Shown: piece by piece, positions 34,074 through 64,000 of the stretch
Numbering within the stretch: the stretch's first letter is position 1
How the letters are laid out: every line of letters begins with the position of its first letter
DNA from: a virus
Virus record (IMG/VR): IMGVR_UViG_3300025030_000004
Coordinates: 102,653 to 166,652 of that record
Length of the DNA: 64,000 nt
Strand: one strand, 5' to 3'
Notes under the pieces: generated by a model
Seen by the model: only the letters and a program-made list of their open reading frames with translations
Database searches by the model: none
What the model was told of the DNA's origin: nothing
Translations under genes and position numbers: made by a program

Positions 34074-34218
34074 GACTAGAAATAGTCTTTTTTCTTTTCT
34101 CCAAACAAGATAAAAACACGCTTTTATTTGTTGGGGTAATAAATAATATAAGGTCAATATATCTAAGGCCAGTAATGGTCTTTTTCTTTTAGGCAATAAA
34201 TAAAGACAAAAATAATAA

Positions 34219-34246
34219 TTGACATTGTATCAAAAACCTATATAAT
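34219..34246 (+). promoter_or_regulatory. SigA-type promoter
   Basis: TTGACA-16-TATAAT. Confidence 0.7.
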
Positions 34247-34278
34247 GTAATTATAAATATTTTTAAGGAGGGAACGCA

Positions 34279-34497
34279 ATGAAAAGTATCTTAGTTTTTG
34301 ATCGGGATACAAACTATGAAGTTGTAATATTGGCAAAGACATTAATCGAAGCCACGAGAAAATATATGGAGGAAAATAAAATCGATGGAAATGTCAAACG
34401 TACTAGTGACAATGGATGGAGATTTAATGCCATCGAAATACAAAAAGGCATATCACTAATAAAAGTAGGGGTAAACAGTTATTATCTATGGATATAA
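34279..34497 (+). CDS. Hypothetical early protein
   Basis: AAGGAGG SD; terminator AGAGCT-gaaa-AGCTCT-TTTT. Confidence 0.7.
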   Translation: MKSILVFDRDTNYEVVILAKTLIEATRKYMEENKIDGNVKRTSDNGWRFNAIEIQKGISLIKVGVNSYYLWI

Positions 34498-34699
34498 AAT
34501 AGAGCTGAAAAGCTCTTTTTTATTTTGTCCTTAAAAATCCTGTAGGGTTAACACTCCAATCAAATTACCCTTTCAAGCTATATAAATACCCTCAGAGACG
34601 GTCAAAAATGCCACTTTAAAGGCTTTATTTTGTTTATGTGTGTATCTCTGTTATGGCAAAATAAAGTATAAAATACCTCGTATAAGCTCAAAATAATTA

Positions 34700-34728
34700 T
34701 TGTACTATATTTTGTTTTGTGCTAAAAT
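34700..34728 (+). promoter_or_regulatory. SigA-type promoter
   Basis: TTGTAC-17-TAAAAT with TG extension. Confidence 0.6.
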
Positions 34729-34763
34729 AAATGAAACGATACATATATAAAGGAGTGTTTTAA

Positions 34764-34970
34764 ATGGCAAAAACAAAAGTTAAAACAATTGTAGGATATA
34801 CCATCCAAATCACTTGCTACACTGGCACTGAGCAAACACTACACACTATCAAGGATCTTAAGGCACACGGCAATATATATGAGACTCAAGAATATTACAC
34901 GGATAAATATCTGGCTAAAGGGTACGATAGAGTAAAACTAAATGTCATACAGGAGTTATACACAAAATAA
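34764..34970 (+). CDS. Hypothetical early protein
   Basis: AAGGAG SD; terminator at 34994-35026. Confidence 0.7.
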   Translation: MAKTKVKTIVGYTIQITCYTGTEQTLHTIKDLKAHGNIYETQEYYTDKYLAKGYDRVKLNVIQELYTK

Positions 34971-35287
34971 AGTAAAAACCACTAAAAACTTCTAAGACTA
35001 GATAAAAATAATATCTAGTCTTTTTTCTTTCCTTATTCTGCCCTAAACTCAATTCCTCATTTTCAATCCTTCAATTACAAAATCACAGCCACAAAAAGGC
35101 CTCTCTAAGCGTTTTAAGCCTTCAGCCGGATATAATTCCATTCCAGACCTAATTTAAATAGCTTATAATCGATTTACATAAAATATACAGCTAATTCAAG
35201 CCAATTCTACTAAATTGTTTACATTTTAACTACAATAAAATAGGACTAAAAACATGCTATAAATGAGTTAAAAATAATAAATAATGC

Positions 35288-35316
35288 TTGACGTATTTAT
35301 TATTTTAGTTTAAAAT
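35288..35316 (+). promoter_or_regulatory. SigA-type promoter of long early operon
   Basis: TTGACG-17-TAAAAT with AT-rich UP region. Confidence 0.7.
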
Positions 35317-35322
35317 AGACTC

Positions 35323-35640
35323 ATAAAGCAAATACAGTCCAGCGTGACACAAGGAGGTGGTCAGACTCGTAAAAGCGAATAATAAATTCCCTCAAAGTTA
35401 ATGCCGGAGGGAAAAGGAAATCCTAGTCAGTTTTCCTTAAAAAATGGATGTTCTTTGATAACTTCATAAGAGACCAGTCACGCGAGTAGGCACTTTATAA
35501 TAAACATTAGAGTACATTTCACAGTGTATCCTCTGAGGATTATAAAGGAATCTGAAAAGCGAGAAAATTCACCGCGCAAGTGCATAGACTGGTAAAACTA
35601 GACTTTTTAGTCTAGCTTAAAGCATAGCAGCATACTTAAT
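35323..35640 (+). ncRNA. Long structured leader RNA
   Basis: ~320-340 nt noncoding after promoter; stems TTCCCTC/GAGGGAA and ACCAGTC/GACTGGT. Confidence 0.45.
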
Positions 35641-35664
35641 TAAAATTTGAGGAGTTGTTTTAAA

Positions 35665-35829
35665 ATGGCAAAATTTAGAGGCATTATAACAGACCAACTC
35701 AAAACATTAGAGACTCGTAAAACTGGTTTTTATGATACATACAAAGAGGCACACGACAAAGCCGAAAAACTTTGCAAGAAAACTATGGGAGACCGTGGAC
35801 AAATTGAAGTTGAGGAAATAACCGAATAA
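35665..35829 (+). CDS. Small early protein enclosed by inverted repeat
   Basis: GAGGAG SD. Confidence 0.65.
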   Translation: MAKFRGIITDQLKTLETRKTGFYDTYKEAHDKAEKLCKKTMGDRGQIEVEEITE

Positions 35830-36152
35830 CATAACAAAACGCTATGCTTTAAGGCAGACTAAAAATGTTTAGTTTAAATACTCTCTTTTGTAGGGTTATT
35901 AATCCCTTAAAAATCCTCATAAAACTTTAAGCATAACAAACTCATATTGTATCTAATATGTTTACATTCTAATTCCGCCGAATCTCTTATTAGGGTTGCC
36001 GAAAAGACAATAAGCGGATGATAGTAAACACTAAATATTAGATATAGAGTCACGTTATAATTAAAGATAATAAAAAGGATTATAACAGGGATTAAAAACA
36101 AACGAGAGTATATCTTTTTTAGTGCTTGCTTAGTAAAAAGGAGATTGATAAC

Positions 36153-36425
36153 ATGACTTATAACAAACTTTTAAATATCAATAAAAGTAAGGCCAGAAAA
36201 GAGGTTATTAAGATTTTTGGCGAAAGTTTTACAGAAAACTCAGCATATCACAAAATTTATGATATGAGTGAAAAAGAGTTTAGACTTGAATTTGTTACTT
36301 TAGATGATTTTATTAAAAATATTATTATTAAAGCTGAGTTCGCAGAAATGCCAGAAGCTGAAATACTCAAAGAGGCTTTTGATCATTTTAACGCGAATGA
36401 AGGATTATTCAATTCATTATTTTAA
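36153..36425 (+). CDS. Hypothetical early protein
   Basis: AAGGGAG SD. Confidence 0.65.
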   Translation: MTYNKLLNINKSKARKEVIKIFGESFTENSAYHKIYDMSEKEFRLEFVTLDDFIKNIIIKAEFAEMPEAEILKEAFDHFNANEGLFNSLF

Positions 36426-36547
36426 AAATAAGCAAGCAAGCATTAACAAAGCTATACTTTCTATAGCTTAACCCAACGAAAAAGACATTTTATATGTCTT
36501 TTCTCTATTGTTTTAATTAGAACGATAGAGAAAGGATATATAAAGGA

Positions 36548-36970
36548 GTGAATAACATGTCATATACTGCAATGCTTAAGAAGTGGGAAAGAGAGTCTAA
36601 AAAGAGATGGGAGCAGGATAGACAAGAAAGAAAAGCACAAAGGGAAAGAGCAGAGGTATTCAAGTTTGAAATATACCTTGCTAGGGAACGTCAAGAGAAG
36701 CAGGAACAAAAGGAAAGGGAAGAAAGACAAAAAAGGGTTATTGAAGCAAAAAATAATATTCTTTTAGCACTTCAGAAAAATAACCCTTTCAACTATTCTC
36801 AGTGGCTTATTATTTGGGATGTTCTAAACTATGATTATGATCAAATTTTAGTATCACTTAACAAAAGCAGAATAACAAAACTTGATATAACGGGAGCATT
36901 CGAGTATATCAAGAATTTTTCTCATGAGATTATATCAGATTATTGGGAAAAAGAATTATTAAGTGTATAA
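36548..36970 (+). CDS. Charged coiled-coil early protein
   Basis: AAGGAG SD; E/R/K/Q-rich N-terminus. Confidence 0.65.
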   Translation: MNNMSYTAMLKKWERESKKRWEQDRQERKAQRERAEVFKFEIYLARERQEKQEQKEREERQKRVIEAKNNILLALQKNNPFNYSQWLIIWDVLNYDYDQILVSLNKSRITKLDITGAFEYIKNFSHEIISDYWEKELLSV

Positions 36971-37108
36971 TAATCCTTAACAAGTTGGTTGTAAGTGTAC
37001 ACCATGATCTTATAACAGGTTATGGTGTATAGTTGGGAATCAATTTAAAAAGAGTTTTGAGAAATGACAAAAGACACTATTCAAGAAAATAAAGGGAGGA
37101 AAATTAAA

Positions 37109-37543
37109 ATGACATTACAAGAAATCAACAACACTTTAAATTCTGGTGTACAATGTTTAGTAGGTAAGAAAATGGAATACGGAGAAATCCACGCAGAAGT
37201 ACATGATGTTATAGAGAGCTTAAATATTGGCCTACAATACTATGCTTGGGACATATCACCTAAAACTAATTATAGTCTGAATATTTTTTCTATAAAACTT
37301 GAAACCCTAGATGACGCAAGGAGCAAGCATAAACGAGTAGGAAAAATTCAGGCCATTAGTTTTACTCTTAATTTTCCTGAATTCGCTGAACTTACTATCT
37401 CAGAATTATTTGAACATCAAGAAAGAAACGAAAAACTACAGAATATTGAGTATATCAAAGAATCTATTGTAAAAAGAGAAAAGGAAATTGAAGAATTAAA
37501 AAGATCATTAATTGAGGCCGAAAACAAATTAAACAACCTTTAA
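37109..37543 (+). CDS. Hypothetical early protein
   Basis: GGGAGG SD; C-terminal coiled coil. Confidence 0.65.
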   Translation: MTLQEINNTLNSGVQCLVGKKMEYGEIHAEVHDVIESLNIGLQYYAWDISPKTNYSLNIFSIKLETLDDARSKHKRVGKIQAISFTLNFPEFAELTISELFEHQERNEKLQNIEYIKESIVKREKEIEELKRSLIEAENKLNNL

Positions 37544-37634
37544 AATCATGTTTTGGTTGGATATTGGATAATAGTCTATAACAGATTTATTATCCAGTTT
37601 CGAGTCAAAATAACTAATCAAAGGAGTTGGAACA

Positions 37635-38444: not shown

Positions 38445-38497
38445 CAATCCCATGAATCACGAATTTTATTTGCCGAATATGAAGGGAAGTTTTAAAA

Positions 38498-38746
38498 ATG
38501 AAACAAATGAGCATTAAACAACTTCAAAGTATTTCTTATTCACCTATTAAAGATGATTCTCTATTTGTTGAAGTTTTCAAGGGAAAAGGATTAAGCACAA
38601 ACGACGAATTAAAAACAGGTATGTACAATGAATGGAATGAAAAAAGAATCAAAAGAGCTTTTAATTTTGGCAATGGTACATTAAAAGACTTTCATAATTA
38701 TGTTAGAGATAATACTAAATATGCTGAATTTATTCAATTAGTATAA
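38498..38746 (+). CDS. Hypothetical early protein
   Basis: AAGGGA SD. Confidence 0.6.
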   Translation: MKQMSIKQLQSISYSPIKDDSLFVEVFKGKGLSTNDELKTGMYNEWNEKRIKRAFNFGNGTLKDFHNYVRDNTKYAEFIQLV

Positions 38747-38794
38747 CCCTTCGAAATCCAGTTTTTATACTTATTATGAAAGGATGTTTTAAGA

Positions 38795-38971: not shown

Positions 38972-39109
38972 ACCGAATAAAACCCAACATTCATAGGTGT
39001 ATGTTCTCTAAGTCGTTTTAGCTATAACACATATAACACAATGTTAAAACGACTTGAAGAGTGTAAACTTTGACACTCTATAATAAAATCAAGAAAGAGG
39101 TCATGTAAA

Positions 39110-39964
39110 ATGTACAATTCCACATCAACCATTAATCAAGCGTTAACCCTATCTAAACTCAACCAACTTGCTCCTTCAGTTTTTTCCAGTTCTGCCCGTG
39201 ATGGATTATCAACCAAATATAATTTTATTCCCACTGTTCAAGTCGTAAAAGAAATGGAAAAAGAAGGATGGCTCCCAGTTAAGGCAATTGAGTCAAGAAC
39301 ACGGAACGAACAAAATCAAGGTTATCAAAAGCATATGGTCAGATTTAGAAATTTCAATGAACAAGTTGAAAATAAGTTAATGGTAGGAGACACTTTTGTT
39401 GAACTTGTTCTAACTAATAGTCATAATGGTCTTTCCTCATTTGTTTTCAATTGTGGCCTTTTCCGACTAGCTTGCTCAAATGGTATGGTTGTCTCAGAAT
39501 CATCCTTCGATACTGCCCGAATTCGCCATAACAGCTATGAAGCGACACAAGTAATAGACATATGTGGAGAAACAGTGAAAAAAGCTCCTCAAATAACTGG
39601 AGCGGTCGAAACGATGAAAAGTATAGAATTAAGTCCAGTTGAGCAGTTAATATTTGCGAATGCAGCAAAACCTTTACGTTTTGATAAACCAAATGAAATT
39701 GAATCAGAGCGAATTCTCTTACCTCATCGTATGGTAGATAAGGGCAATGACTTATGGAAAACTTTTAACCGCACACAAGAGAACTTAATCAAAGGGAATG
39801 TAAGATATGACAGACGCGACGAGAACGGACGTTACCAAGGCCGAAGTCACACAAGAGAAGTAAAGGCAATTGATAACAATCTCAAATTAAATCAGGCATT
39901 ATGGACGCTTGCCGAAGAAATGGCAAAACTGAAAACTGGTAATAGTACCATGGCAGCACGTTAA
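39110..39964 (+). CDS. DUF932-family protein
   Basis: 'APSVF..LSTKY.FIPT', 'KHMVRFR', 'NSHNG.SS', 'GLFRLACSNGMV', 'DLWKTFN..QEN'. Confidence 0.85.
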   Translation: MYNSTSTINQALTLSKLNQLAPSVFSSSARDGLSTKYNFIPTVQVVKEMEKEGWLPVKAIESRTRNEQNQGYQKHMVRFRNFNEQVENKLMVGDTFVELVLTNSHNGLSSFVFNCGLFRLACSNGMVVSESSFDTARIRHNSYEATQVIDICGETVKKAPQITGAVETMKSIELSPVEQLIFANAAKPLRFDKPNEIESERILLPHRMVDKGNDLWKTFNRTQENLIKGNVRYDRRDENGRYQGRSHTREVKAIDNNLKLNQALWTLAEEMAKLKTGNSTMAAR

Positions 39965-40093
39965 TACATAGCATTAAGTTAATCGAGTATCCTTTAACAG
40001 TACACTATACTAATATAATAAACGTTGGTATAGTGTACAAATTAAAAGGTATTTTATTAATATCTTTATAACAAATTAAGGAGTGAATTACAT

Positions 40094-41362
40094 ATGTCAA
40101 AACATTATGTCAAAAACCTTGAAACTGGCAAAATTGAACTTCATTTTTCAAAATCTGAATATCAAGCCTTATCCGACGAACTAAAAAAAGAATTAAAAAG
40201 ATCATATCTTTTTAGTGGCACGTCAAAAGCTTGGGTATCTCGTTCAATCCATAACCAATGGGGAGCAATTGAGACAGCAAAAAAACTAGGATTCATAGAA
40301 GAAAAAAAAATAGGCGAACGTCTAAGTTATGAAGAACAATTAGAACGCAAACAAGAAAAAGCAGAACACAGAGCAGACAGATATGACCAATATGCTGAAA
40401 ATGCGAATAACAGAGGCAAGGCAATGCAATCTGAATTAGAAAAATATCGGGGAGACATTGCTTTCCACACTCAACCTATTATTTCCGGTCATGCAGGATC
40501 TCAGGCATTCGGAAGACGTAGACAAAAAATCTATGACAGATATCACAAAGGATTCGAGGAATACCGAAAAAGCGAATATTTTCAAGATAGAGCAGAAACA
40601 GCAAGACAAACTGCTAATGCCACACAATTGAAAAATCCAATATACTTGAATAATAGGATTGAAGAGTGCAACAAAAGTATTAGAAAATTAGAAAAGAACT
40701 TAGTATATTATGACGATATTTTATACAAAAAAAATAATAATGAAGAGATTTCTAGTTTCTATCAAGAGAAAACAGCCGAACAGATACAAGGTTATTTGAA
40801 TGACACTATTGACAAAATTGAATGGCAAATGGATAAACTTGCATTTTTGCAAAATTGCATGGATTAAATTAAAATTGCCCTAGAGGAAAGCGGTGAAAAA
40901 ATGTATAACAAAGAGGATATTAAGCAGGGATATTTATTCCGGTGTTATCGTTTTAATTCTTGGGCAAGAGTTATTCGAGTTAATCCTAAGACCATAACAG
41001 CCGTATATATTGAACATCCACTAACTGGACATGATGCCTCTTGTCCGTATGCCGAAATCAAGGAAATAAAAATACCTGAAGATTGGAAAGATGAAAAGGA
41101 AGTAAAAACAGAAAATCCTTTTAAGATTGGTGATATTGTTTGCAAACACAGACCGGCCGATAATAGTATTTACAGAGCTTTCCAAATTGTTAAAACCACA
41201 GAAAAATCTGTAACCATTCAAAGGATTGAAGTAATAGACCATAAACCTGTTAAGGATATTTTTATCGGCGATAAGCAAGAAAGAAAACAAGTTAAAAAAG
41301 ATAGACAGGGAAATTTCGTATTAAATCATGATGATTGGTATCTATACAAATATACAGCATAA
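40094..41362 (+). pseudogene. DUF3560-family protein split by in-frame TAA at 40865
   Basis: 'KAEHRADRY..AE', 'QPIISGH', 'YLNNRI'; ORFs 40094-40867 and 40901-41362 are in one frame with an open linker. Confidence 0.7.
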
Positions 41363-44771: not shown

Positions 44772-45017
44772 ATGTCAAAATCTAACACGGAAATTATAAC
44801 ACTTGCAGCACGGCAGAAAAATTTCAATTATACTGGCGATAATCTTTTCACCTTCGCCGAATGGAGCGCAATGGGTTATAAGATTAACAAAGGGCAAAGA
44901 GCGTTCATTCAAGTCCGGCTATGGTCTAGCGGAGTTAACAAAAGATTAAAACCTGAAAGTTTGTTCAAAGTGGATCAGGTGACTAAGTTAGATGTTAAGA
45001 ATTTAATTATCATATAA
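44772..45017 (+). CDS. ArdC N-terminal-like (ssDNA-binding) small protein
   Basis: 'LFTFAEWSAMGYKINKGQRA' matches TFxxWxxxGxxVxKGxKA motif. Confidence 0.6.
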   Translation: MSKSNTEIITLAARQKNFNYTGDNLFTFAEWSAMGYKINKGQRAFIQVRLWSSGVNKRLKPESLFKVDQVTKLDVKNLIII

Positions 45018-45358: not shown

Positions 45359-45472
45359 TCCAAGAAAACTATTATTTCATGCCAAGTATGGGATTTCAAA
45401 ACCCTTATAACACAAGGGTTTCAGGGTTCATATGTTTTTGGAATTAAGTAAAATTAGAGGGAGTGTTTAAAA

Positions 45473-46000: not shown

Positions 46001-46273
46001 ATGACTTATGAAGAAGCTAAAGCATATGGAGAAGAATTGATGGAAAGAAATAAAATTGATTCAGATAATCTAAAATTCTTTGATGAAATATACGGAAGAA
46101 GTTCAATGGGTTTAACTCCAGATCATGTTAAGGCATTGCCTGAATGGAAAGAAGCGAAAGAAACATTTAATAAATCTTTTACTGAACTAAGAAATTTTAA
46201 TGCATGGTTCACAAAAACATTTAAAAAAGAATATATGGCTGAAAGACGTAATAGGCGATACAATCAAAAGTAA
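46001..46273 (+). CDS. Conserved small phage protein
   Basis: 'MGLTPDHVK..PEW...LRNFN' motif. Confidence 0.65.
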   Translation: MTYEEAKAYGEELMERNKIDSDNLKFFDEIYGRSSMGLTPDHVKALPEWKEAKETFNKSFTELRNFNAWFTKTFKKEYMAERRNRRYNQK

Positions 46274-46339
46274 ATTCTATTTGCTACACGTACGCATGTG
46301 TGCTACAATCATACCATCACACACAAAGGAGGTCTCACA

Positions 46340-47524: not shown

Positions 47525-47755
47525 TACAGCAAACGCCGTGATGCCTTCGGGCGATATGTTTTGTATGAGGCGGTTGCGGATATATGTGACGTGGTAAATA
47601 TAATTATTATTTAAATTGCTATTTTTATTAGGTTATGAATGATATACAGAATAGTTATAACAGTTGACACATTTTCTTTGGGAATCTATTGCATTTTCTT
47701 CCATCTAAGAATATACTATCATCAAGAAATAAAAAATATTAAGGAGCGATGTAAA

Positions 47756-48865
47756 ATGTCAAGAAGAAAACCTGCCAATCAACCTTGGAACATCAAACAA
47801 ATTAACACCATGATTAACAAAGGAACTATATCCTTCACGCATCCACTTCAACGTCCTGCCGATCAATGGGAGTTAGTAAACAAGACTCTACTAATTGATT
47901 CTCTATTAACACTCTATTGTCCAGACGTTTTTGCAATCAAAGAGAAGACAGAGCAAGGTAATGTATACTCCATAATTGATGGTAAACAGAGATTAACAAC
48001 TATACATAGTTATATTGCCGACAAATGGGAACTTGGAACAGTTGAACCATTCAGCCTAGAGGCAACAGGTAATGAGACATATAATATCTCAGGTAAAAAG
48101 TTCTCAGAACTGCCCGAAGAAGTCCAAAACGAAATAACAGGTTACACTTTAGGAGTCAAAGTCTTTGAAATAGAAGAGGGAGACGATGAAGAATCAATCA
48201 TTGAGGAAATTTTCTATCGGTTAAATAATGGTAAAGGAATGTCAAAAGAACACAAGGCATTAGTCAGAGCGTCCCATAAAGTACAAAAGTTTGTTCATAG
48301 AATAGCAACAGAGCATAAATTATTTACTGAAGTTGCTAAATTCTCAGAAGGTGCTATCAAAAAGTCAGATATCCAAATGACCATTCTGCAAAGTATTCTA
48401 ACTATCTCAGGACTTGATTTTAATTCATTTGCAGCAAAAGATGTTGAACAAGTATTTGCCGATAATGATATAACAGACTCAATCCTAGACATCACAGAGA
48501 AGTCCTTCGATGCAATTCTTGAAGCATTCCCTGAAAAGCATAAGTTTGTAACAAAGATTAATATTTCTTCAATGGCTTACCTGTTCGCAATCAGCTTGAA
48601 TCATGCTGATACTATTAATAGACTCTTAACTTATGCTAACAGCAAGTCATTACCTGCCGATGAGTATAAACGGTTTACAGGTTCAGGCAATGTTAAGAAG
48701 GTAAATGTATTAAGTAGAATGAAGGGCATCCTGAGTATTTGCGGAGTAGAGAAAAGAGAATTGGTTGAAGAAAATCAATCCGATATAACACCAGACCTTG
48801 AAGAATCAAATGATTATAGGGAAGAAGCAGAATCCATTCTCGAAATAATTAATAATGTAGCGTAA
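47756..48865 (+). CDS. DUF262 (ParB/Srx-like, GmrS-type) domain protein
   Basis: 'LQRP..QW', 'LIDSLL', 'IIDGKQRLTTI', 'IFYRLNNG'. Confidence 0.85.
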   Translation: MSRRKPANQPWNIKQINTMINKGTISFTHPLQRPADQWELVNKTLLIDSLLTLYCPDVFAIKEKTEQGNVYSIIDGKQRLTTIHSYIADKWELGTVEPFSLEATGNETYNISGKKFSELPEEVQNEITGYTLGVKVFEIEEGDDEESIIEEIFYRLNNGKGMSKEHKALVRASHKVQKFVHRIATEHKLFTEVAKFSEGAIKKSDIQMTILQSILTISGLDFNSFAAKDVEQVFADNDITDSILDITEKSFDAILEAFPEKHKFVTKINISSMAYLFAISLNHADTINRLLTYANSKSLPADEYKRFTGSGNVKKVNVLSRMKGILSICGVEKRELVEENQSDITPDLEESNDYREEAESILEIINNVA

Positions 48866-49215: not shown

Positions 49216-49276
49216 CATAATGGCTTAAATGGCAGAATTCATTGTAATTAAAATAAAATTTGAGAGGAGATTGAAA

Positions 49277-49489
49277 ATGAAAAACAGGTTTTATATTAAT
49301 GACGAAGATTCACACTGGGGTGATTTTAATTATGTCGTAACACCAGAAGGTAAAAAAATTGAGTATTCTTATCTTTGTACAAGAGAGGGAGATGCCCCTC
49401 CAAAAGATAGAAATTATATACTAGCATATGAAACAAATGGAGAAGATTACTCAATTATTGTTGATCCTTATAATACGCAATTAGATTAA
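49277..49489 (+). CDS. Hypothetical protein
   Basis: GAGGAG SD before MKNRF. Confidence 0.55.
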   Translation: MKNRFYINDEDSHWGDFNYVVTPEGKKIEYSYLCTREGDAPPKDRNYILAYETNGEDYSIIVDPYNTQLD

Positions 49490-49539
49490 AATATAACTTT
49501 CCTTGTATAACAAAAATAAAATAAAAAGGGGCGATACAT

Positions 49540-50058: not shown

Positions 50059-50209
50059 ATCAGATGCTTTAAAATCACTCTTTGGTTGCCTTTGAGACAG
50101 GGAATAAAAATAAATTTCTCTGTCTTTTTAATATCCTATTGTTATTATTTATTACTTATTGTATAATTTAGTTAGTAAAACAAATATAATTAATTGGGGG
50201 AATAAGATA

Positions 50210-52254: not shown

Positions 52255-52890
52255 ATGTGTCTAGCTAAAAGTTATATCGAACAAATTATGGAGATTTACA
52301 ATAATATTAATCTAGACATAAACCGTCTTTGTAAAGAAGAAAAGATGGCAAACTTATTTGATCAAGATATGCTACATGCAATTGAGAACACTAATTTCAA
52401 TGCTTGTGATGGCTATAAACTAGCAAAACAATTAAGGAAAAACAGGTTGTTCCGCAGACAGGTTAAGAATGAACTGGATACTTTACTACGATTAAAAGCT
52501 AATATAATTGATTCAAATTATGATATGCTGAATGATCAGCATCAAAAAATAATTCTTAGAGATAATTACCTAAAGAGTTTAGTGGAAAACAAAATATATA
52601 ATCCAAAAATAATAGGAGTTGAAAATCCAGAAATTAGAGTTAGAAGACCTATTTCTAGACAATTTAAACCAAAAGCAATTCCTACGCCTGTTTTGTCTAT
52701 ACCAATACAGCCAAAGCAAGAACAACAAATTATATTGGGAGATGCCATACATAAGAAAACTAACACAAAATTAAAAGTGATAAGCAAGATTGATGACGGT
52801 CATTATGTTGTTAAAACAGAGAAGGGTGCATATCAAGTTTTGTGTAGTAAATATATTATTAACTTAAAACTTGATCAGTCCGCGAAATAG
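52255..52890 (+). CDS. Coiled-coil hypothetical protein
   Basis: 'QDMLHAIE..FNACDGYKL...RRQVKNE'. Confidence 0.65.
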   Translation: MCLAKSYIEQIMEIYNNINLDINRLCKEEKMANLFDQDMLHAIENTNFNACDGYKLAKQLRKNRLFRRQVKNELDTLLRLKANIIDSNYDMLNDQHQKIILRDNYLKSLVENKIYNPKIIGVENPEIRVRRPISRQFKPKAIPTPVLSIPIQPKQEQQIILGDAIHKKTNTKLKVISKIDDGHYVVKTEKGAYQVLCSKYIINLKLDQSAK

Positions 52891-52963
52891 GATAAATGAT
52901 TGCTTTCAAGTTACTATTATCTTGTTTATTTAGAATTAAGTCTGATATATTAGTATAATTATC

Positions 52964-53221: not shown

Positions 53222-53557
53222 ATGTTTGGATTTTCAAAACGGCATGAAGTTGTTAAAGAAATTAACAGAGGAGAAATTTACAACGTAGGTTCTGGAGAAG
53301 TTATAATTATAAGCAATAACACTGTTAATAGACATAGTTCATTTATTCATGTATTGCCAATAAATAAGATTAATTTAAAAAGCATTGTTGTTACAGATGA
53401 TGTAATTTCAATTCACATACTTGATCTAGATAAAAAGGTTGGTGAAGTATCTGTGGAAAGTATGGAAAATTTAGAAAATGGATTAAATAATTCATATATA
53501 CATGGTAAACAAGGAGACGCTATTATTATCAAACGTAAAAACCACATCAATGTCTAA
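53222..53557 (+). CDS. Degenerate PemK/MazF-like protein
   Basis: 'INRGEIY', 'IIISNN..N..S..I.VLPI', 'KKVGEVS...ME.LE'. Confidence 0.5.
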   Translation: MFGFSKRHEVVKEINRGEIYNVGSGEVIIISNNTVNRHSSFIHVLPINKINLKSIVVTDDVISIHILDLDKKVGEVSVESMENLENGLNNSYIHGKQGDAIIIKRKNHINV

Positions 53558-53584
53558 TTTGCTAGTATCATAAGGAGGTTTAAA

Positions 53585-53819: not shown

Positions 53820-54140
53820 ATGGAAAAATTAAGAGTATGGCATATCCCACAAGTTGGTCATAATGCAACATTATATGTTCCAGTTGAAACAGCAGAGGAA
53901 GGAAAAAAAGTTATGGATATTTTAGCTTGCTATGATCTATTTCAACTAGAGAATAGAATCAAACCTGATTTTTGTAACACCTCTGGACTTCAAGTATTTG
54001 ATGAAGAAGAACAAAAATGGTTGGATTGGGTTCTTGAGACTGAAGACAATTATTTTGATAATGTTGACGAATTTTTTGAAGAAGATGAAAAAATGCAAGT
54101 ATTTACAAGGGAATTATTTGGTCAACTTAAAGGGGCATGA
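53820..54140 (+). CDS. P22 gp17-like protein (exclusion-evasion/anti-defence)
   Basis: 'KLRVWHIPQV...YDLFQLENRIKPDFCN..GL'. Confidence 0.7.
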   Translation: MEKLRVWHIPQVGHNATLYVPVETAEEGKKVMDILACYDLFQLENRIKPDFCNTSGLQVFDEEEQKWLDWVLETEDNYFDNVDEFFEEDEKMQVFTRELFGQLKGA

Positions 54141-54392
54141 AAGGACGGTTTTAATGGTATGAAGAAAGTTGAGTATGTTTTTAATCAAGGGGATATGTCA
54201 GAAATTCTAATAGAGTTAAAAGATGCCGAGCAAGAAACAAGAATGTTATTAGTCCAACTTGAAGACGGTGATACCAAAGATGAAGTTATGGGAATACTTA
54301 ATCGCATTCAATTTTCAATACACAAATTAGAAGAATAGCACGATCAAAATACTATTTCGTATGCTAAATTAAAGAAAGAGAGTGATTAAATT

Positions 54393-54668
54393 ATGAATAA
54401 AATAAAGCAATATAGACCTAATCTTGTAACAACAACCGAAGATAATCAGATGGTTGAATTTGAAACTACACAAGAACTTCTTAATATTGATTTTGTAAAA
54501 AAGTTTTCAAACAGAAATAACTTTTATAGATATAGTTTGGATATTGACAATTATTTTAATCAATATAGTTTGATGGCAGAATATAATGATGGTCGTGATT
54601 GGTGGGTGGTTGGATTCATTGATAATCCACAAGATATAGATTTGCCCAAATGGAAACCAATTAAATAA
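54393..54668 (+). CDS. Hypothetical protein
   Basis: 'LMAEYNDGRDWWVVG'. Confidence 0.6.
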   Translation: MNKIKQYRPNLVTTTEDNQMVEFETTQELLNIDFVKKFSNRNNFYRYSLDIDNYFNQYSLMAEYNDGRDWWVVGFIDNPQDIDLPKWKPIK

Positions 54669-55097
54669 TCCCAAGAAAGCCTGAATTTATGTGAGATGGA
54701 GATGTAAAACAATGAATGATTTGAAAGTTTTAATGAAAAAATGTTTTAATTGCGGATATTTTGAGGAGAATGGTATAATGTTTTCAGCCGTACCAGAATG
54801 TATGTATTATAAAGAATATGCTTGCGAAGCAACTAAATATTACACATGTTCAAAGTGAATAAAACGTGAATTCAATCTATTAATAAAGGAGTTTTTCTAA
54901 TGAATGACTTAATAATATTTTACGGAGTACCAAATGACAAGGAAATTGGATATAAATATGCAAAATATGATGGAACAGGGTATACATTATTTTGGTATAA
55001 TAAAGAAACAGACGAAGAAATCATATTTCCATTAGATAATGAAGATTTAGACCAATTAAGATAATCAGGGATTTTATACTGAAAGGAGAATAGATTT

Positions 55098-55352
55098 ATG
55101 AATGAAAAAACTGCAATAAAAGTAATAAAACAGCATTGTTCCAAAAATATAACGGTTTTTCAAAGTGCGTTAGATATAGCTATTATAGCATTAGAAAAAC
55201 AAATACCCAAGAAACCAAAGATTGAAAAATGGGAACCCGCCAGATGCCCTTGTTGTGATGGAAGTTTAAGCGAATGTGCAGGAGATGGTTATTATGATCA
55301 TCAATACAACTTGAAATTTTGCGATTGTGGACAGAGATTGAAGTGGGAATAA
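55098..55352 (+). CDS. Zn-ribbon phage protein
   Basis: 'ALEKQIPKKP..CPCC...FCDCGQRLKW'. Confidence 0.7.
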   Translation: MNEKTAIKVIKQHCSKNITVFQSALDIAIIALEKQIPKKPKIEKWEPARCPCCDGSLSECAGDGYYDHQYNLKFCDCGQRLKWE

Positions 55353-55361
55353 AAAGTCTAA

Positions 55362-55733
55362 TTGAAAGGATGTTATCGAATGGATAAAGAAACTTTTCAA
55401 GAAATGACTAAACAAGAAAAGATTGATTGTTTATTTGCTAAAATTGATAATATTAAAAGTGTTGCAGCATGGCACAATAGAGAATATAGTAACGGCAAGA
55501 ATTGGATGAAAAATTGCAAAGATGCTTGTACTGTAATTTATGATAATTGTAAATCAATTTTATCTGCATATGAAGAAGAGACATTGATTGATTTAAATTT
55601 AAAAAATAAAAGAGATAAAGTGGAAATGCAATTTGATAAATTTATGAACGATGAAAATATATCTAAACAGAAAAAAGATCAAGTTTTGAAAATAATTATG
55701 GATATGTTAAATTTGTTTGAAAAGGAGAATTAA
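55362..55733 (+). CDS. Hypothetical protein
   Basis: Probable start 55380 after AAAGGA. Confidence 0.55.
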   Translation: MKGCYRMDKETFQEMTKQEKIDCLFAKIDNIKSVAAWHNREYSNGKNWMKNCKDACTVIYDNCKSILSAYEEETLIDLNLKNKRDKVEMQFDKFMNDENISKQKKDQVLKIIMDMLNLFEKEN

Positions 55734-55736: not shown

Positions 55737-55970
55737 ATGAAAGCAAAACTTTTACGTATTGATATACGTGGAATGACAGCATATAGTAAAGAAATTGAAG
55801 ACAATATTGATATTGAAACTTTTGCTGAAACAGTAAAAGAAGTTGTTATAAGTTGGGGTATTTGGAATGAAGGAGATAAGTTTATTATTGAAGTAATAGA
55901 TTTTCAAAAAGAGTTAAAAAGAAGACAAGAGAATTTTGAAAGAATTCATAATGAGTTAATGAACAAATAA
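55737..55970 (+). CDS. Hypothetical protein
   Basis: AAGGAG SD. Confidence 0.55.
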   Translation: MKAKLLRIDIRGMTAYSKEIEDNIDIETFAETVKEVVISWGIWNEGDKFIIEVIDFQKELKRRQENFERIHNELMNK

Positions 55971-56002
55971 AAGACTTATTTCATGATATAGGAGATAAAA
56001 AT

Positions 56003-56617: not shown

Positions 56618-56926
56618 ATGAAGTTTGAGATGAAACATAGGGAAAATAAAATAATAAAGGAGGAAATAGTTATGGAAAAGTTCAAATTAGAAAAACAATA
56701 CAGAGGGAATTTATCTATTGATGGTGCTTTAGAACATTTTACAGATGAAATTGCTGGTAAATTAGATTGTGGTTTAGAAGATGATAAAGTAATAGAATTA
56801 AGTAGTATCAATAATTATACTAAAGAAATTTTATTTATGGAAAATGGAATGAGATTAGAGATAGAAGTATTTTTTGATACTAAAGAGGATGAATGGATAT
56901 GCACATGTCAAGAAATAAACACTTAA
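56618..56926 (+). CDS. Acidic hypothetical protein
   Basis: AGGAGG SD suggests start 56672. Confidence 0.55.
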   Translation: MKFEMKHRENKIIKEEIVMEKFKLEKQYRGNLSIDGALEHFTDEIAGKLDCGLEDDKVIELSSINNYTKEILFMENGMRLEIEVFFDTKEDEWICTCQEINT

Positions 56927-57100
56927 ATTTGACATTTCGAGTGATAAGGAGATAAAACTAAATGTATTCTTGGCAGGTAGCACAATCGGAGCATAAACAA
57001 TGGCATTTATCGCAGGAACAAATAGATAATAGTAAATATGCATTATTTTTTTCTCCAATGAATAAGATATAATAAACCAAACTAAAAGGAGGAATAAACC

Positions 57101-57296: not shown

Positions 57297-57968
57297 GTGA
57301 TTAAGAGAAATAAAATAACCAAGTATTGTAAGGAATGTGGAACAGGAGCAACAGTAAATTCTATAATTTGTACATCGTGTGGAGCAGAATTAAAAACTAG
57401 TAATGGAATGGCCTTTGTAATGCCTATTCGAGACAGAGAAAAAATTGAAGAAATGAAACAATATCTTAAATCTAATAATATTAGAGATTGGGCTTGGTTT
57501 ACACTTGGTATTAATTCAGCTTTAAGAATTTCTGACATATTAAAAATCACTGTATCTGATGTTATTGATGAAAATGGAAAAATTAGAGAAAGGCTCAAAG
57601 TAAAAGAAACTAAAACTGGGAAAAGTAAAGACTTTCCATTTTCGCAAAATGTAATTAATACCTTGACAGAATATATTTCTACTGTAAATCCCATAGGAGT
57701 TTTATTCCCTTCTAGAAAAGGTGAGGGAGCAATTAGTAGAGTTCAAGCAAACAATATAATATCTAAAGCAGCTATTGCAATAGGAATAAAGGAAAATATT
57801 GGATCGCACAGTTGCAGAAAAACGTGGGCATTTCAGGCTTATGAAAAAGGAGTTCCCTTAGTTAAAATCATGACGGCACTTAATCATGCTAGTGAAAGGG
57901 ACACTATGAGATATCTTGGAATTACCCAAGAGGGGTTAGATGACGTTTATTTGGATTTGAATTTATAA
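57297..57968 (+). CDS. Tyrosine recombinase (catalytic domain with N-terminal Zn ribbon)
   Basis: R (ALRISD), K (KTGK), HxxR (HSCR), H (LNH), Y (RYLG); CKEC/CTSC. Confidence 0.9.
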   Translation: MIKRNKITKYCKECGTGATVNSIICTSCGAELKTSNGMAFVMPIRDREKIEEMKQYLKSNNIRDWAWFTLGINSALRISDILKITVSDVIDENGKIRERLKVKETKTGKSKDFPFSQNVINTLTEYISTVNPIGVLFPSRKGEGAISRVQANNIISKAAIAIGIKENIGSHSCRKTWAFQAYEKGVPLVKIMTALNHASERDTMRYLGITQEGLDDVYLDLNL

Positions 57969-60149: not shown

Positions 60150-60164
60150 GGAGTGTATTAAAAA

Positions 60165-60800
60165 ATGTATGAAATTGTAGAGGTAAAATGGATTTCATAT
60201 CCCAAAAAGAGTAAAGTAAATTTATCTAAAGAAAGTGCAATATTAAAATTCACAAATGGTAGATCAGTTAAGTTTTATAGACCACATTTAGTAAAAGGAC
60301 TAACAAACGTTTCAATAGGGACAAAATTCCATCTTATTTATCGAGAGGATGGAGTAGGTGAATATGGCCAAGAATATGAAATGACAAAGGCAGTAAGCTT
60401 AAAAGATAAGGATTTGTCTAAGTTTATAAATACCTATAATCCGAATACCTTATTTATTGAGAATTATATACTACATGGATTAAGTATAAGTCCTTATGGA
60501 GATGAAGAATATTATAATTGGTTATGCGACTATGTATTAAAAATATCTAGAAGTAATGATGAAAGAATGCCGAAATTACTATATTCAGAGATAAGTAAAG
60601 ATCCACTTAAAAAGTCATATAAGGGATATAATTTTGAGGAGGTTAAAAGTTGTATATACGATAGAGTTGCCAATATTATTAAAGAAGATTTTGATATTGA
60701 GAAAGCATGGAACAATTTAATTGGTATAAATGCTGGAAGATATACGATGTTTAAAGGCAGAAGTATAGATAGTTATTTTCCGGGACATTGGACTGATTAA
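60165..60800 (+). CDS. Hypothetical protein
   Basis: AAGGAG SD. Confidence 0.6.
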   Translation: MYEIVEVKWISYPKKSKVNLSKESAILKFTNGRSVKFYRPHLVKGLTNVSIGTKFHLIYREDGVGEYGQEYEMTKAVSLKDKDLSKFINTYNPNTLFIENYILHGLSISPYGDEEYYNWLCDYVLKISRSNDERMPKLLYSEISKDPLKKSYKGYNFEEVKSCIYDRVANIIKEDFDIEKAWNNLIGINAGRYTMFKGRSIDSYFPGHWTD

Positions 60801-60821
60801 TATAAAGGAGGAGTTAAAATA

Positions 60822-61124
60822 ATGCAATATAAATTAGAAGATGTGAATATACAGGAAGAATACAATCAATTAACCATAGATCAAAAAGAGGAATTGCAAA
60901 GTTGGATAAAAGGAAGGTTTATACATTGTAAAACTATAAATAAGACTTATACTTCATATGGGTATAAGCATATTTTTGAAAACGACAGACACGGATTTTA
61001 TATTTCTAACGAACAATTCAAAGGTGCAATGTTGGAGGCAGGGTATATACCAAGGGATAAATTATCTAAGAACTGGAATTTTTACGTTAAGTTTTTTACT
61101 TTAGCAAATGATGATATGACTTGA
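60822..61124 (+). CDS. Conserved protein (TSYGxKH motif)
   Basis: 'TSYGYKHIFE...YISNEQFKGAMLEAGY..NWNF'. Confidence 0.65.
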   Translation: MQYKLEDVNIQEEYNQLTIDQKEELQSWIKGRFIHCKTINKTYTSYGYKHIFENDRHGFYISNEQFKGAMLEAGYIPRDKLSKNWNFYVKFFTLANDDMT

Positions 61125-61153
61125 TTAAAAGTAATAGAGGAGGATAAATAATA

Positions 61154-61468
61154 ATGCTTAAATTATATTACCGTCTAAAGATATGGAAACTTAAAAGAGA
61201 CTTAAAATTCTATGAGAAAATTACAGGCGAACAAAACATACATAAACAAAAAGAATTAAACCATTACATTAGAAAACTGGATAATTACAATCAATCACTG
61301 TATATTTACTGTCCTCTGTGTTGGAATGAATTAATAAGTAGTGATAGTTTTGTTAGTGATGAGGATGTAGTTACCTATAAATGTTCTAAGTGTTTATTGA
61401 TTTCTAGATGGGCTTTTGATAGTGCTCCAGTGCCGATTTTAATTAAGGATAAGAAAGGAGGAAAATAA
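61154..61468 (+). CDS. Zn-ribbon protein
   Basis: CPLC...CSKC. Confidence 0.6.
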   Translation: MLKLYYRLKIWKLKRDLKFYEKITGEQNIHKQKELNHYIRKLDNYNQSLYIYCPLCWNELISSDSFVSDEDVVTYKCSKCLLISRWAFDSAPVPILIKDKKGGK

Positions 61469-61471
61469 ACA

Positions 61472-61741
61472 ATGTTAGAATTCTATAAGATAAAAAGTCC
61501 TTTCGATGAACAATATAGTTCTGGATTAAGGCATGGGTATATTCATAAGTCCAAGAAGGGTAAAACATGGAACTCCATTGGTCATGTAAAAAGTCACTTA
61601 TCTATGGTGCAAAGAATGGATAGCAAAGCATTTGATTTGTTTTATGATACTTGGTTGGTTATAAAAATTACTGAAAACGGAATTGAAAACTTAGGGAAAG
61701 TTAGGGAATTTAGAGAAAAGAATGGATGTTGGATGGGATAA
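61472..61741 (+). CDS. Hypothetical protein
   Basis: 'GKTWNSIGHVKSHL'. Confidence 0.6.
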   Translation: MLEFYKIKSPFDEQYSSGLRHGYIHKSKKGKTWNSIGHVKSHLSMVQRMDSKAFDLFYDTWLVIKITENGIENLGKVREFREKNGCWMG

Positions 61742-61784
61742 CCCAATAAAAGGCATGTTTTAAGCTAATTGGAAAGGAGCAAAT

Positions 61785-62045
61785 ATGAAAAGTAATTGCC
61801 TATTAGGAGCGATAAAACAATATATAAAATATCCTACAAATACTATAATACATATGCGTGGTTCATGGTTAGAAGTATTCCAATGTAAATGGCCTCATTT
61901 CTACTGGTTAGATAAGAGAGATAATCATTATTACCATTTTTGTGCTAAGTATTCGGATGAACCATTTATAAATCAAATCTGGTTTCAGGGTGAGGTTAAA
62001 AGGTTTCTATGGCATGACAAAAGTATTAGAAAGGAGATATTATGA
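61785..62045 (+). CDS. Hypothetical protein
   Basis: 'SNCL', 'PHFYW', 'WFQG'. Confidence 0.6.
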   Translation: MKSNCLLGAIKQYIKYPTNTIIHMRGSWLEVFQCKWPHFYWLDKRDNHYYHFCAKYSDEPFINQIWFQGEVKRFLWHDKSIRKEIL

Positions 62046-62100
62046 ATTTATAATAGTATAAACCCTTATTTTAAAGTATCTAATAAGCAAAATATAAAAT

Positions 62101-63471
62101 ATGGAAGAGGATAATATATTGAAACCAATATTTGCAGAGGAAAAGATATTCCTTGAAAAACGATTAGAATTAGAACTACCTACGGATTGTTGGAGAGATG
62201 GATCTAAAATATATCTAGACCCAACATGTACAAAACCATTATATATTTTTAAGGTGGATAATAAATTAATTAAAATTACAAAAGACAACTCAGAATTATT
62301 TACAGAATATAAACAGAAACAATTGGCTGATTTAATTGAAATATATGATGATAAATTAAACCAACAGAAACAAAAATCAATTGATAAAACAGTTGAATAC
62401 ATGTTAGAACATCAAAATTATAGATATGTAATAAGTCATAGTGGAGGTAAAGATTCCACAATAACATATTATATTTGGTTAAAAACATTAAATATTCTCA
62501 AAGAAGATTATCCAGATATCTATAATAATCTTAATTGGGAAATAAACTTTTCTAATACTAGTAACGATACTGCCGATACATACAAATATATTAAAACATT
62601 ACCAAGGGATAAACTACGTATTCTCAATCCTCCTGTTGGATTCTATCAATGGATAATAAAAACTAAAAACTATTTCATTCCGTCTGCTATGGTTAGGAAT
62701 TGTTGCTCTACATATAAAGAAGGACAAATAAATAAGTATTACAACAAGAAAGAAAATATTATAATGGTGACTGGGGTAAGAAAATACGAATCAACAAAAA
62801 GAGCGAAATATGAATTTGTAATGGACTCTGAATTTAGAACGGAACTTCATGGAAAAGATAATTTAGCTAAACCTTGGATTACCTTAGCTCCAATAGTAGA
62901 ATGGAAAGATGAGGAAGTTTGGTTATATATTTTACGTGAACAATTAGAATATAATAATCAGTATAATGTAGGATTTAATAGGTGTGGATGTCTGATCTGC
63001 CCATACCAAAGTGATTATATAGACCTAATTATTGAAGAAAAATATCCAAAACAATGGATTAGATGGATTGAAATATTAAAAAAGAATTATGTCATTTGGC
63101 ATGTAAGAGAACATTTAAAATGGTCATTAGAGGAATGGATTAATGGTAAATGGAAACAAGGGACGAGTAAGGAATATGAATTAATTAATCTTTCTCTTAC
63201 AGAAGATAGAGTTAAACAATTAGCAAAATTAAAAGGTATATCGAAGATAATGGCTAAGAAGTATTGGAATAAAAAATGTGCTTGTGGGAAGAAATTAAAT
63301 CCTACGGAGATTGCAATGAATTATAAAACGTTTGGTAGGTTTGAAAATATAGACAATGATACTAGAGAGTTATTGTGTAAAAAGTGTTTCTGTGAGCAAG
63401 AGAGAATTACTAAGAAAGAGTATGCCGAACTTACATATAGATACTTAGATGAGGGATGCAATTTGTTTTAA
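62101..63471 (+). CDS. PAPS-reductase family (DndC/CysH-like PP-loop, Fe-S) protein
   Basis: 'SHSGGKDS', 'RNCCSTYK', 'GVRKYES.KR', 'PIVEW..EEVW', 'RCGCLICP'. Confidence 0.85.
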   Translation: MEEDNILKPIFAEEKIFLEKRLELELPTDCWRDGSKIYLDPTCTKPLYIFKVDNKLIKITKDNSELFTEYKQKQLADLIEIYDDKLNQQKQKSIDKTVEYMLEHQNYRYVISHSGGKDSTITYYIWLKTLNILKEDYPDIYNNLNWEINFSNTSNDTADTYKYIKTLPRDKLRILNPPVGFYQWIIKTKNYFIPSAMVRNCCSTYKEGQINKYYNKKENIIMVTGVRKYESTKRAKYEFVMDSEFRTELHGKDNLAKPWITLAPIVEWKDEEVWLYILREQLEYNNQYNVGFNRCGCLICPYQSDYIDLIIEEKYPKQWIRWIEILKKNYVIWHVREHLKWSLEEWINGKWKQGTSKEYELINLSLTEDRVKQLAKLKGISKIMAKKYWNKKCACGKKLNPTEIAMNYKTFGRFENIDNDTRELLCKKCFCEQERITKKEYAELTYRYLDEGCNLF

Positions 63472-63528
63472 TACATATTTTAAATTTTATGGTATAATAA
63501 TTGGGTAAATTTAAAAGGAGTTGAGATA

Positions 63529-63726
63529 ATGAAAATATTTTTTGAATTAGAAACAATAGAAACACCAAATAATTGTTCAAAATGTCCAATAGGTTATTAT
63601 GAAACTAATGATGATGGAGAATATGTTTATTGTGTTTTATTATCATATATCAAAAATGAGCAAGTCGAAGGTGATTTTACGAAACGTAGAAAAGATTGCC
63701 CTTTGAAGTTCGAAGATGAGAAATAA
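63529..63726 (+). CDS. Small Cys-rich phage protein
   Basis: 'PNNCSKCP...R.KDCPL'. Confidence 0.6.
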   Translation: MKIFFELETIETPNNCSKCPIGYYETNDDGEYVYCVLLSYIKNEQVEGDFTKRRKDCPLKFEDEK

Positions 63727-64000
63727 GTAAAATAGGAGTTATAAATTTCTTTTGTTAATTACGAGGAGATTTATAACTCTCAAATGAAATTCATAGTTTA
63801 TAGGGTACATAATGAACAATAAATAATTTTATTTAACCTCTTGTATTTGGTAGCAGGAGGTTATATAATTAATCAAACCCCACGAAATTATATTTTCAAT
63901 CTATTTTGAAAGGAATGATTTTTATGTTTGAAAAAGATGAAGTGGTATGGTGTAGACCTAATTTAAGTGATGCACCGATTTGTGGTAAATATGTTGAGAA

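Follow-up and report, generated by a model that had tools for sequence, protein, structure and literature searches.

Gene-end palindromes with individual 6-bp centres as probable recombination joints in an SPbeta-like groundwater phage and its relatives

A groundwater phage, represented by the 166,652-bp IMG/VR record IMGVR_UViG_3300025030_000004, carries dozens of copies of an imperfect palindrome between its plus-strand genes, mostly close to the stop codon of the upstream gene. Each copy consists of two inverted arms of about 10 bp around a centre of exactly 6 bp, whereby each site of the genome has a centre of its own, which recurs at the equivalent position in related phages. We suggest that the sites probably constitute ordered, "barcoded" recombination joints for a dimeric protein, i.e., fixed crossover points of gene exchange. 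The window analyzed here is the final 64 kb of the record (record positions 102,653 to 166,652), and all coordinates refer to it unless a genome position or another phage is named. A first-pass annotation had noticed the palindromes between positions 34111 and 63898 and had proposed an integron-like cassette system; the observation as such was confirmed and proved to be broader than stated, and the motif reaches beyond this region.

The record carries a 357-bp terminal repeat at its ends. Plus-strand genes run from approximately 135 kb through the ends to approximately 65 kb, and minus-strand genes occupy 66 to 134 kb. Judged from its sequence, the phage is SPbeta-like, as it encodes a YonO-type RNA polymerase, a YorL-type DNA polymerase, as well as terminase and tape-measure homologues. 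For comparison, its genome (G000) was set against six related groundwater phage contigs, which were recovered via shared proteins (G001–G003 and G006–G008), and against SPbeta and its relatives.

The motif was derived with a Gibbs sampler from upstream regions from which the ribosome-binding site had been trimmed away; a first run had recovered the ribosome-binding site alone. The same 44 sites were reached from 4 of 12 seeds, and 43 of them are located ahead of plus-strand genes, in both genome arms. An analysis of k-mer over-representation with a maximal-order Markov model yielded nothing, because the motif is gapped and degenerate. The logo describes a 26-bp dyad, TCCnWTRAAA-N6-TTTYAWnGGA, with G/T-G/T-A at its right end and AA and TT just outside. 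Both halves represent one and the same half-site, T-C-C-n-W-T-R-A-A-A, to which the reverse-complemented right half fits column by column. The "(AA)CCC ... GG" flanks described in the first-pass annotation thus reappear within the arms of about 10 bp, as CC in the left arm and G/T-G/T in the right arm. A scan of the genome with the 26-bp position weight matrix gave 75 sites, compared to 10 with the reversed matrix. Fifty-seven of the 75 sites are intergenic, although non-coding DNA makes up only 23% of the genome, and 63 belong to the plus-strand domain, where they are found along both arms of the 166-kb genome. Of the 23 example positions given by the first-pass annotation, 17 score at least 11 bits, with those at 34111, 45949, 47612, 52074, 54860, and 56165 remaining below this value. 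Between 34111 and 63898, where it had counted about 25 copies, there are about 26 matrix sites, two of which lie in the terminal repeat.

The loose 16-mer pattern YRAAW-N6-WTTYR, which the first-pass annotation had expected to be enriched, has 34 matches between the genes of the plus-strand domain, where 12.2 ± 3.7 are expected (z = 5.9). Over the window as a whole this expectation did not hold (33 matches versus 36.2 ± 5.8 expected), because the pattern is too degenerate outside of intergenic DNA. The claim of a fixed spacer stood: among spacer lengths from 0 to 15 only a length of 6 is prominent (z = 2.1 for spacer 5 and -0.1 for spacer 7).

An inverted repeat at gene 3' ends could in principle act as an RNA or single-stranded DNA hairpin, i.e., as a terminator, a processing site, or a folded recombination site, and a few near-perfect palindromes exist, such as the one at genome position 48947. 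However, the arms do not covary. The arm pairs of this genome form 230 Watson-Crick pairs compared to 236.8 ± 8.0 in shuffled pairings (z = -0.86), and the SPbeta family gave z = -1.9 across 253 distinct sites. Only about 5 of the 10 arm positions pair, mainly as A-T, and there is neither a G+C-rich stem nor a T-run; separate terminator hairpins are present nearby. Likewise, the logo displays no traits of an intrinsic terminator, as its arms are A/T-rich and follow no T-run rule, and a terminator scan listed other positions. The hairpin explanation therefore has hardly any probability left. The lack of covariation in either family argues for duplex DNA with two equivalent half-sites, which in turn sets the element apart from attC sites and terminators. 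Thus, the sites would be recognized as double-stranded DNA by a dimeric protein with two-fold symmetry that contacts two inverted arms of about 10 bp around the 6-bp centre.

The position at gene ends, as claimed by the first-pass annotation, is an anchoring to the stop codon. Among 51 sites that are each located between two plus-strand genes, 31 start between -8 and +5 nt of the upstream stop, compared to 19 expected under free placement in the gap. The stop codon often coincides with motif positions 6–8 (T-R-A), or a TAA immediately precedes position 1. The distance to the next start codon is variable, and long gaps or terminators follow some of the sites. It might thus be that the sites have a purely regulatory or architectural role, for instance as a roadblock or an insulator, and are bound by a dimeric protein of phage or host where transcription or translation units end, whereby the joints described below would coincide with them because modules are exchanged as a whole and selection keeps the punctuation. 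The gene-end anchoring and the occasional terminators would agree with this explanation, and dyad, fixed spacer, and constrained arms would suit any dimeric DNA-binding protein, the 5-6-5 geometry being suited to Crp/Fnr-type regulators. Against it stands that the strongest sigma-A-like promoters of the window (34219, 33644, 43331, and 46491) are not located at the sites. On the whole we consider it unlikely, for this and for further reasons given below. A reading of the motif itself as a sigma-A promoter, with a -35-like TAACCC and a -10-like TAnnnT, was dropped, because the halves mirror each other and the best promoter-like sites are found elsewhere. As a separate observation, a repeated hairpin element of the AAAACCCTTATAACACAAGGGTTT type directly adjoins some of the palindromes, e.g., at 45385–45430, and occurs in other intergenic gaps; contigs of other phages from the same metagenome match only this short AAAACCCTTATAACACAAGGGTTT-type element.

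The motif is present in all six groundwater relatives, with 17–75 sites compared to 1–13 control matches. These genomes have few orthologous accessory genes in common; between a few per cent and approximately 13% of their DNA can be aligned to G000, and at most about 25% among each other, at 70–80% identity. G008 gave a weaker signal under the G000 matrix (37 sites versus 13 in the control) and has few spacers in common with the others; possibly its version of the motif is a shifted one. In SPbeta the element is found in a sharper form. Its genome contains 34 exact copies of TAAAA-N6-TTTTA, 27 of which are located in the plus-strand early arm, while each of the other spacer lengths from 0 to 12 occurs 0–4 times. 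Ten more Spbetavirus genomes carry 30–43 exact copies, compared to 0–6 at any other spacer. The outer arms of this family read TCTnnA ... TnnAGA, and the spacer begins with T or G and ends with A or C. Unrelated AT-rich phage loci exhibited no comparable spacer peak. In the literature searched, which included an SPbeta review as well as the Kohm and Dragos preprints, TAAAA-N6-TTTTA is not described for SPbeta-like phages; the SPbeta genome paper (Lazarevic 1999) was outside this scope and may mention the palindrome.

One line of evidence for a role in gene exchange comes from the positions at which homology between related genomes ends. Megablast comparisons of SPbeta with ten relatives yielded 146 distinct homology-block ends in the early arm. 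These cluster around the site centres, with left ends at -7.5 to -9.5 nt and right ends at +7.5 to +9.5 nt, which corresponds to the outer edges of the 16-mer. A breakpoint is present in 26 of 30 site-bearing intergenic regions but in only 34 of 75 site-free ones (Fisher p = 8e-5). In views of the junctions, one 16-mer including its spacer stands next to several unrelated flanks, as at SPbeta site 86074 (TAAAAgatgcaTTTTA), where the spacer gatgca is constant among six genomes that display three left and three right flanks. Each unrelated flank carries its own outer arm, and therefore both exchange partners must have had a site. These 16-mers with several unrelated left and right flanks and their own outer arms are left unexplained by regulatory binding sites. 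Site pairs with one common flank have an identical spacer in 326 + 299 cases and a different one in 26 + 24 cases. The minority with a different spacer is exemplified by phi3T, L4, and L6, in which the left flank of SPbeta site 87599 is joined to the spacer of site 88400, which places the crossover between left arm and spacer; in L4 and L6 the right flank of the 88400 site also follows the 87599 left flank, so that yoqH–yoqI are missing. Among orthologous sites of the family, the inner arms have changed at 2.6% per position compared to 6.4% for the spacer.

Divergence blurs the block ends in the groundwater family. Nevertheless, at three junctions homology to relatives stops 8 nt beyond the centre of the site in either genome; one of them is 52888, in the comparison with G002. 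At 49482, homology to G003 sets in at the left edge of the site, whereby left arm and spacer are identical, the right flank is homologous, and the upstream sequence is unrelated. Altogether, 13 site pairs among the seven groundwater genomes combine an identical spacer with one homologous and one unrelated flank. Besides the 49482 site, these include 45359, where spacer and right flank are kept relative to G003 next to an unrelated left flank, and 54133, where left flank and spacer are shared with G007 and the right flank is unrelated. Thus, when relatives are aligned, as the first-pass annotation had suggested, gene replacements and indels do break at the sites, in the groundwater family and very clearly in the SPbeta family. 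For lab-evolved phi3Ts–SPbeta hybrids one non-homologous junction near yosA has been reported, which is uninformative with respect to the sites.

The second line of evidence is the centres themselves. Between the seven groundwater genomes, 202 identical 6-bp centres were counted, compared to 45.8 expected from letter-shuffled centres. G000 and G002 share 19 spacers (4.2 expected), of which 16 form one collinear chain, and G000 and G007 share 17 (4.5 expected), of which 15 are collinear in reverse orientation. The centres at 36472 (AAGACA), 45359 (CTATTA), and 49221 (GGCAGA) recur in three or four relatives, although the arms vary at their degenerate positions and the neighboring genes have no orthologues there. 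In the SPbeta family, each relative has 20–28 centres in common with SPbeta, of which 18 of 19 to 27 of 27 adjacent pairs stand in the same order. Site-specific centres that are conserved in order amid gene turnover are hard to reconcile with a plain operator, and regulatory binding sites leave unexplained why such unconstrained-looking centres should be ordered between unrelated flanking genes. In contrast, ordered centres are what would be produced if the overlap regions of a tyrosine-recombinase-type site had to match. They would also follow, though more weakly, if the sites were always the retained crossover point.

Several points weigh against recombination joints. No recombination event has been observed directly. 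The sites border modules, which would be units of exchange regardless of what the sites do, and as intergenic gaps are compact, any replacement that keeps the site must break near its edges, so that the precision of the breaks is partly forced by geometry. The sharing of spacers among close SPbeta relatives is largely due to common ancestry, and a part of the sharing in the more distant groundwater set could reflect slow neutral decay. Among the 71 pure indels by which SPbeta-family genomes differ, 26 stop at a site edge on one side, but none has strict sites at both ends. A catalytically competent recombinase that is conserved alongside the motif was not found. Furthermore, contigs from two groundwater samples are identical and display no joints at the sites, whereby contigs are blind to rare forms and speak neither for nor against excision; the joints and loose ends listed for these samples derive from low-identity contigs or from the repeated hairpin element and not from the sites. 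Two of these points, the indels with a site at mostly one end and the missing recombinase, speak at the same time for regulatory binding sites.

The first-pass annotation had also considered that the palindromes are arrayed sites of a recombinase-fold repressor, and indeed a true MrpR homologue, with PF22822 and PF22823 both above cut-off, as well as a YopQ-like DndB-domain protein are encoded in the phage genome. Few proteins are common to all motif-bearing genomes; the MrpR-like and the YopQ-like one belong to them, and the MrpR-like one is the sole protein of this set with a recombinase fold, to which the arm-spacer-arm geometry would fit. The palindromes could thus be operators of an MrpR/YopR-type master repressor and constitute this phage's equivalent of SPBRE, the operator of MrpR (YopR/SroF) in SPbeta. 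Both are repeated intergenic elements of SPbeta-like phages with a recombinase-fold binder encoded in the same genomes (PMC10516654), and a long, highly conserved SPBRE-like repeat was not found in the genome of the groundwater phage. However, the about 10 MrpR peaks obtained by chromatin affinity purification sequencing (ChAP-seq) in SPbeta are all at SPBRE (PMC10516654), and in SPbeta the palindromes coexist with SPBRE as a distinct element. SPBRE was derived de novo from upstream regions of SPbeta, 10 in all, and is unrelated to the palindromes in sequence. It is a near-identical sequence of approximately 22–28 bp (gACAAAtAcAAAtAATATGTATA) that occurs in about 10 copies and overlaps sigma-A-type promoters, whereas the palindromes occur in 30–75 copies and are anchored to upstream stop codons rather than to promoters. 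Moreover, one motif matrix fits G000, G001, and G002 alike, although the MrpR homologues of these three genomes share no more than 27–29% identity. MrpR lacks most of the catalytic residues, and its recombination was assayed on att sites only (PMC10516654). The operator explanation is hence very unlikely, and the repressor alternative of the first-pass annotation is not supported. Independently of this, a mere 6 nt separate the SPBRE box of SPbeta from the palindrome that precedes aimR (NC_001884, 76171–76214), and therefore the MrpR ChAP-seq peaks at this place cannot separate the two elements.

The first-pass annotation had proposed that single-gene cassettes may be inserted or excised at the sites in an integron-like manner, possibly by the tyrosine recombinase encoded at 57297–57968 (+). 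This is a true recombinase, with a PF00589 match at 1e-25 and R, K, H-x-x-R, H, and Y residues that all align to those of XerA (4a8e). Homologues with 58–59% identity are encoded in G001 and G002, and G007 contains a strong match. Sites at the borders of gene gain and gene loss would also be in line with this explanation. However, the protein of 223 aa (phrog_216) consists of an N-terminal zinc ribbon and the catalytic domain and lacks the N-terminal core-binding domain. It is absent from the motif-bearing G008, which is 92% complete, as well as from all 11 SPbeta-family genomes, and its homologues with 32–49% identity in phages of approximately 40 kb have no motif around them. For these reasons the recombinase was not assigned to the sites, and it is probably not the site enzyme. 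As a side observation, many phages of Streptococcus, Bacillus, and Clostridium encode homologues of it in the middle of their genomes. With respect to the two other recombinases of the phage, which comprise 330–350 aa, only weak similarity to SPbeta YopP and YomM was detected, namely of the one at genome positions 98845–99894 to YopP (E = 3e-6), and the relatives conserve neither of the two. When loci were searched with the MrpR homologue or the small recombinase as single proteins, nothing was returned, and alignment queries were required.

The sites themselves do not resemble an integron either. What they share with attC/attI is the position at open reading frame 3' ends, the gain and loss of accessory genes there, and the proposed tyrosine-recombinase site type. 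AttC sites comprise 57–141 bp and are recognized as a folded single strand, whereby structure and not sequence is conserved. Integrons require an IntI-attI-Pc platform, and their cassettes are single promoterless open reading frames. Folded-strand sites with conservation of structure only, or hairpin covariation, are not seen here. No IntI-type integrase with attI and Pc was found, the only nearby recombinase being the one at 57297, and 1–11 genes are located between sites, so that there is no array of single promoterless cassettes. Together with the lack of indels that end at two sites (0 of 71), this makes an integron-like cassette system highly improbable.

The closest geometry is that of the Xer/dif core and of Acinetobacter pdif sites, which have the same arm-6 bp-arm arrangement over approximately 26–28 bp. 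The logo is 10-6-10 in the groundwater phage and, with outer arms, 11-6-11 in SPbeta, and only a spacer of 6 is enriched. As in pdif modules, which are acted upon by the host XerC/XerD, many dispersed copies per replicon bound variable accessory modules, and the sites bound modules that differ between related genomes, with breakpoints at their edges and an enrichment of breakpoints in site-bearing intergenic regions (p = 8e-5). A further parallel is that a pdif element need not encode its own recombinase; by analogy, host Xer recombinases are a candidate for the acting enzyme. In contrast to pdif and dif sites with their separate arms for XerC and XerD, the arms are near-symmetric here; every copy possesses an individual centre that is conserved in genome order, and the replicon is a phage. 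A clear match of the arms to Bacillus dif is not known. As a phenomenon, the closest described case is the promoter early stem-loop (PeSL) of T4-type phages, a short motif that is repeated at gene borders in hyperplastic regions, at insertions, deletions, and replacements (PMC2839356). The palindromes are likewise gene-border repeats associated with indel or replacement events. PeSLs consist of a sigma-70 promoter and a terminator hairpin and recombine by homology (PMC2839356, PMC4122927), whereas the palindromes have no -35/-10 consensus and no selection for a hairpin but a strict dyad with a fixed, position-specific 6-bp centre.

The exchange at such recombination joints might proceed as follows. 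Two SPbeta-like genomes would meet in one cell, either by co-infection or by infection of a lysogen. The centre, which is individual to each site and recurs where related phages have the corresponding site, would serve as an address label, and the exchange would take place inside the site, in the arms that border the 6-bp centre. Everything on one side of the joint would then be swapped, whereby gene order would be preserved. Mechanistically, this could be a tyrosine-recombinase-type reaction that requires matching centres, or else annealing or copy-choice on 16–26 identical bases. The acting protein could be a phage recombinase-fold protein or a host Xer recombinase. In its most specific form, the proposal would be a dedicated site-specific exchange system that extends from SPbeta to the groundwater phages, in which dozens of dif-like core sites carry 6-bp overlap addresses and a tyrosine-recombinase-type enzyme, either a phage recombinase-fold protein or host Xer, permits swaps only between equivalent positions of co-resident phages, giving rapid accessory turnover with the order kept. 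We put this forward as a tentative possibility, about which some doubt is in place.

The individual sites of the window carry no strand assignment (strand "."); bounds are those of the 26-bp matrix match, scores are in bits, and positions from the first-pass annotation are added in brackets. Upstream of the previously described region, the junction palindrome at 32829..32854 scores 14.4 and has the spacer TGCCCA, which is the same at collinear sites in G001, G003, and G007. It is followed by 34555..34580 (TCCAATCAAA-ttaccc-TTTCAAGCTA, 18.8) and by 35870..35895 (13.3) with the spacer ACTCTC, which is also present in G007. At 36472..36497 (36477; 16.4), which is overlapped by a terminator-like hairpin, the spacer AAGACA is the same at collinear sites in G001, G002, G003, and G007, and the flanking genes have no orthologues. 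The site at 37536..37561 (37541; 15.8) has an offset of -7 from the gene end, so that the stop codon represents positions 6–8, and its spacer also occurs in G002. Three sites follow shortly after one another: 38448..38473 (38453; 18.8) starts 4 nt past the stop, 38747..38772 (38752; 14.0) abuts the stop of open reading frame 38498–38746, and 38973..38998 (38978; 14.7) lies 2 nt past the stop. Further downstream, 45359..45384 (45364; 16.3) abuts the stop and has the spacer CTATTA, also found in G002 and G007, and 46259..46284 (13.9) has the spacer AGTAAA, also found in G002. The spacer GGCAGA of 49221..49246 (49226; 12.8) is identical at collinear sites in G001, G002, G003, and G007. At 49482..49507 (AGATTAAAAT-ataact-TT..; 49487; 11.4) the stop is within the motif. 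The sites at 50065..50090 (12.6; spacer TCACTC, also in G002), 52888..52913 (11.9; spacer GATTGC), and 53542..53567 (12.0; spacer GTCTAA, also in G002) are next in order, the last of them overlapping a gene end.

The stop codon is likewise within the motif at 54133..54158 (54138; 15.9; spacer GGACGG), 55345..55370 (55350; 14.1), 55963..55988 (55968; 11.6), and 56919..56944 (56924; 13.5). It is abutted by 54339..54364 (54344; 15.2), whose spacer ATACTA also occurs in G001 and G002, by 54669..54694 (54674; 18.5), which adjoins open reading frame 54393–54668, and by 61742..61767 (CCCAATAAAA-ggcatg-TTTTAAGCTA; 61747; 18.3), where the next start codon follows 17 nt on. Two sites lie in the 357-bp terminal repeat, namely 63780..63805 (63785; 17.3), corresponding to genome position 137, and 63878..63903 (63883; 18.1), corresponding to genome position 235, with the spacer TTATAT that is also present in G002, G006, and G007.

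The window yielded zero megablast matches to GenBank phages. Among the long proteins, none is nearly as well conserved between the groundwater phage and SPbeta as the YonO-type polymerase, an 879-aa single-chain RNA polymerase encoded at 22089–24728 (-) with 50% identity to SPbeta YonO. Genes for DUF932 and DUF3560 proteins and a weak ArdC-N-like match are found side by side at 39110–40867 and 44772–45017 (+); such a set typically belongs to the "leading regions" with anti-restriction genes in conjugative elements and is located here in a phage accessory arm. At 47639–48865 (+) a protein with a GmrSD N-terminal domain (PF03235) is encoded, and at 62101–63471 (+) a DndC-like protein of 456 aa with a PAPS-reductase domain. 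As two YopQ/DndB-like genes are present in other parts of the genome, all of these together hint at a DNA-modification or anti-defence theme. An IS605-family OrfB/TnpB-like gene with a Cas12f-like TNB domain is located at genome positions 16849–18039, within the lysogeny region of the phage.

Since the element is sharper in SPbeta and phi3T, with 30–43 exact copies per genome, the proposed function is open to direct tests in Bacillus subtilis, for which the genetics are available. The sites would be useful landmarks for annotating and comparing mosaic genomes and possibly docking points for engineering. Should crossovers truly take place at them, this would account for the quick turnover of accessory and anti-defence genes in large temperate SPbeta-like phages that nevertheless keep their gene order, and the sites would represent a phage counterpart to dif modules and integrons with an inbuilt address code.

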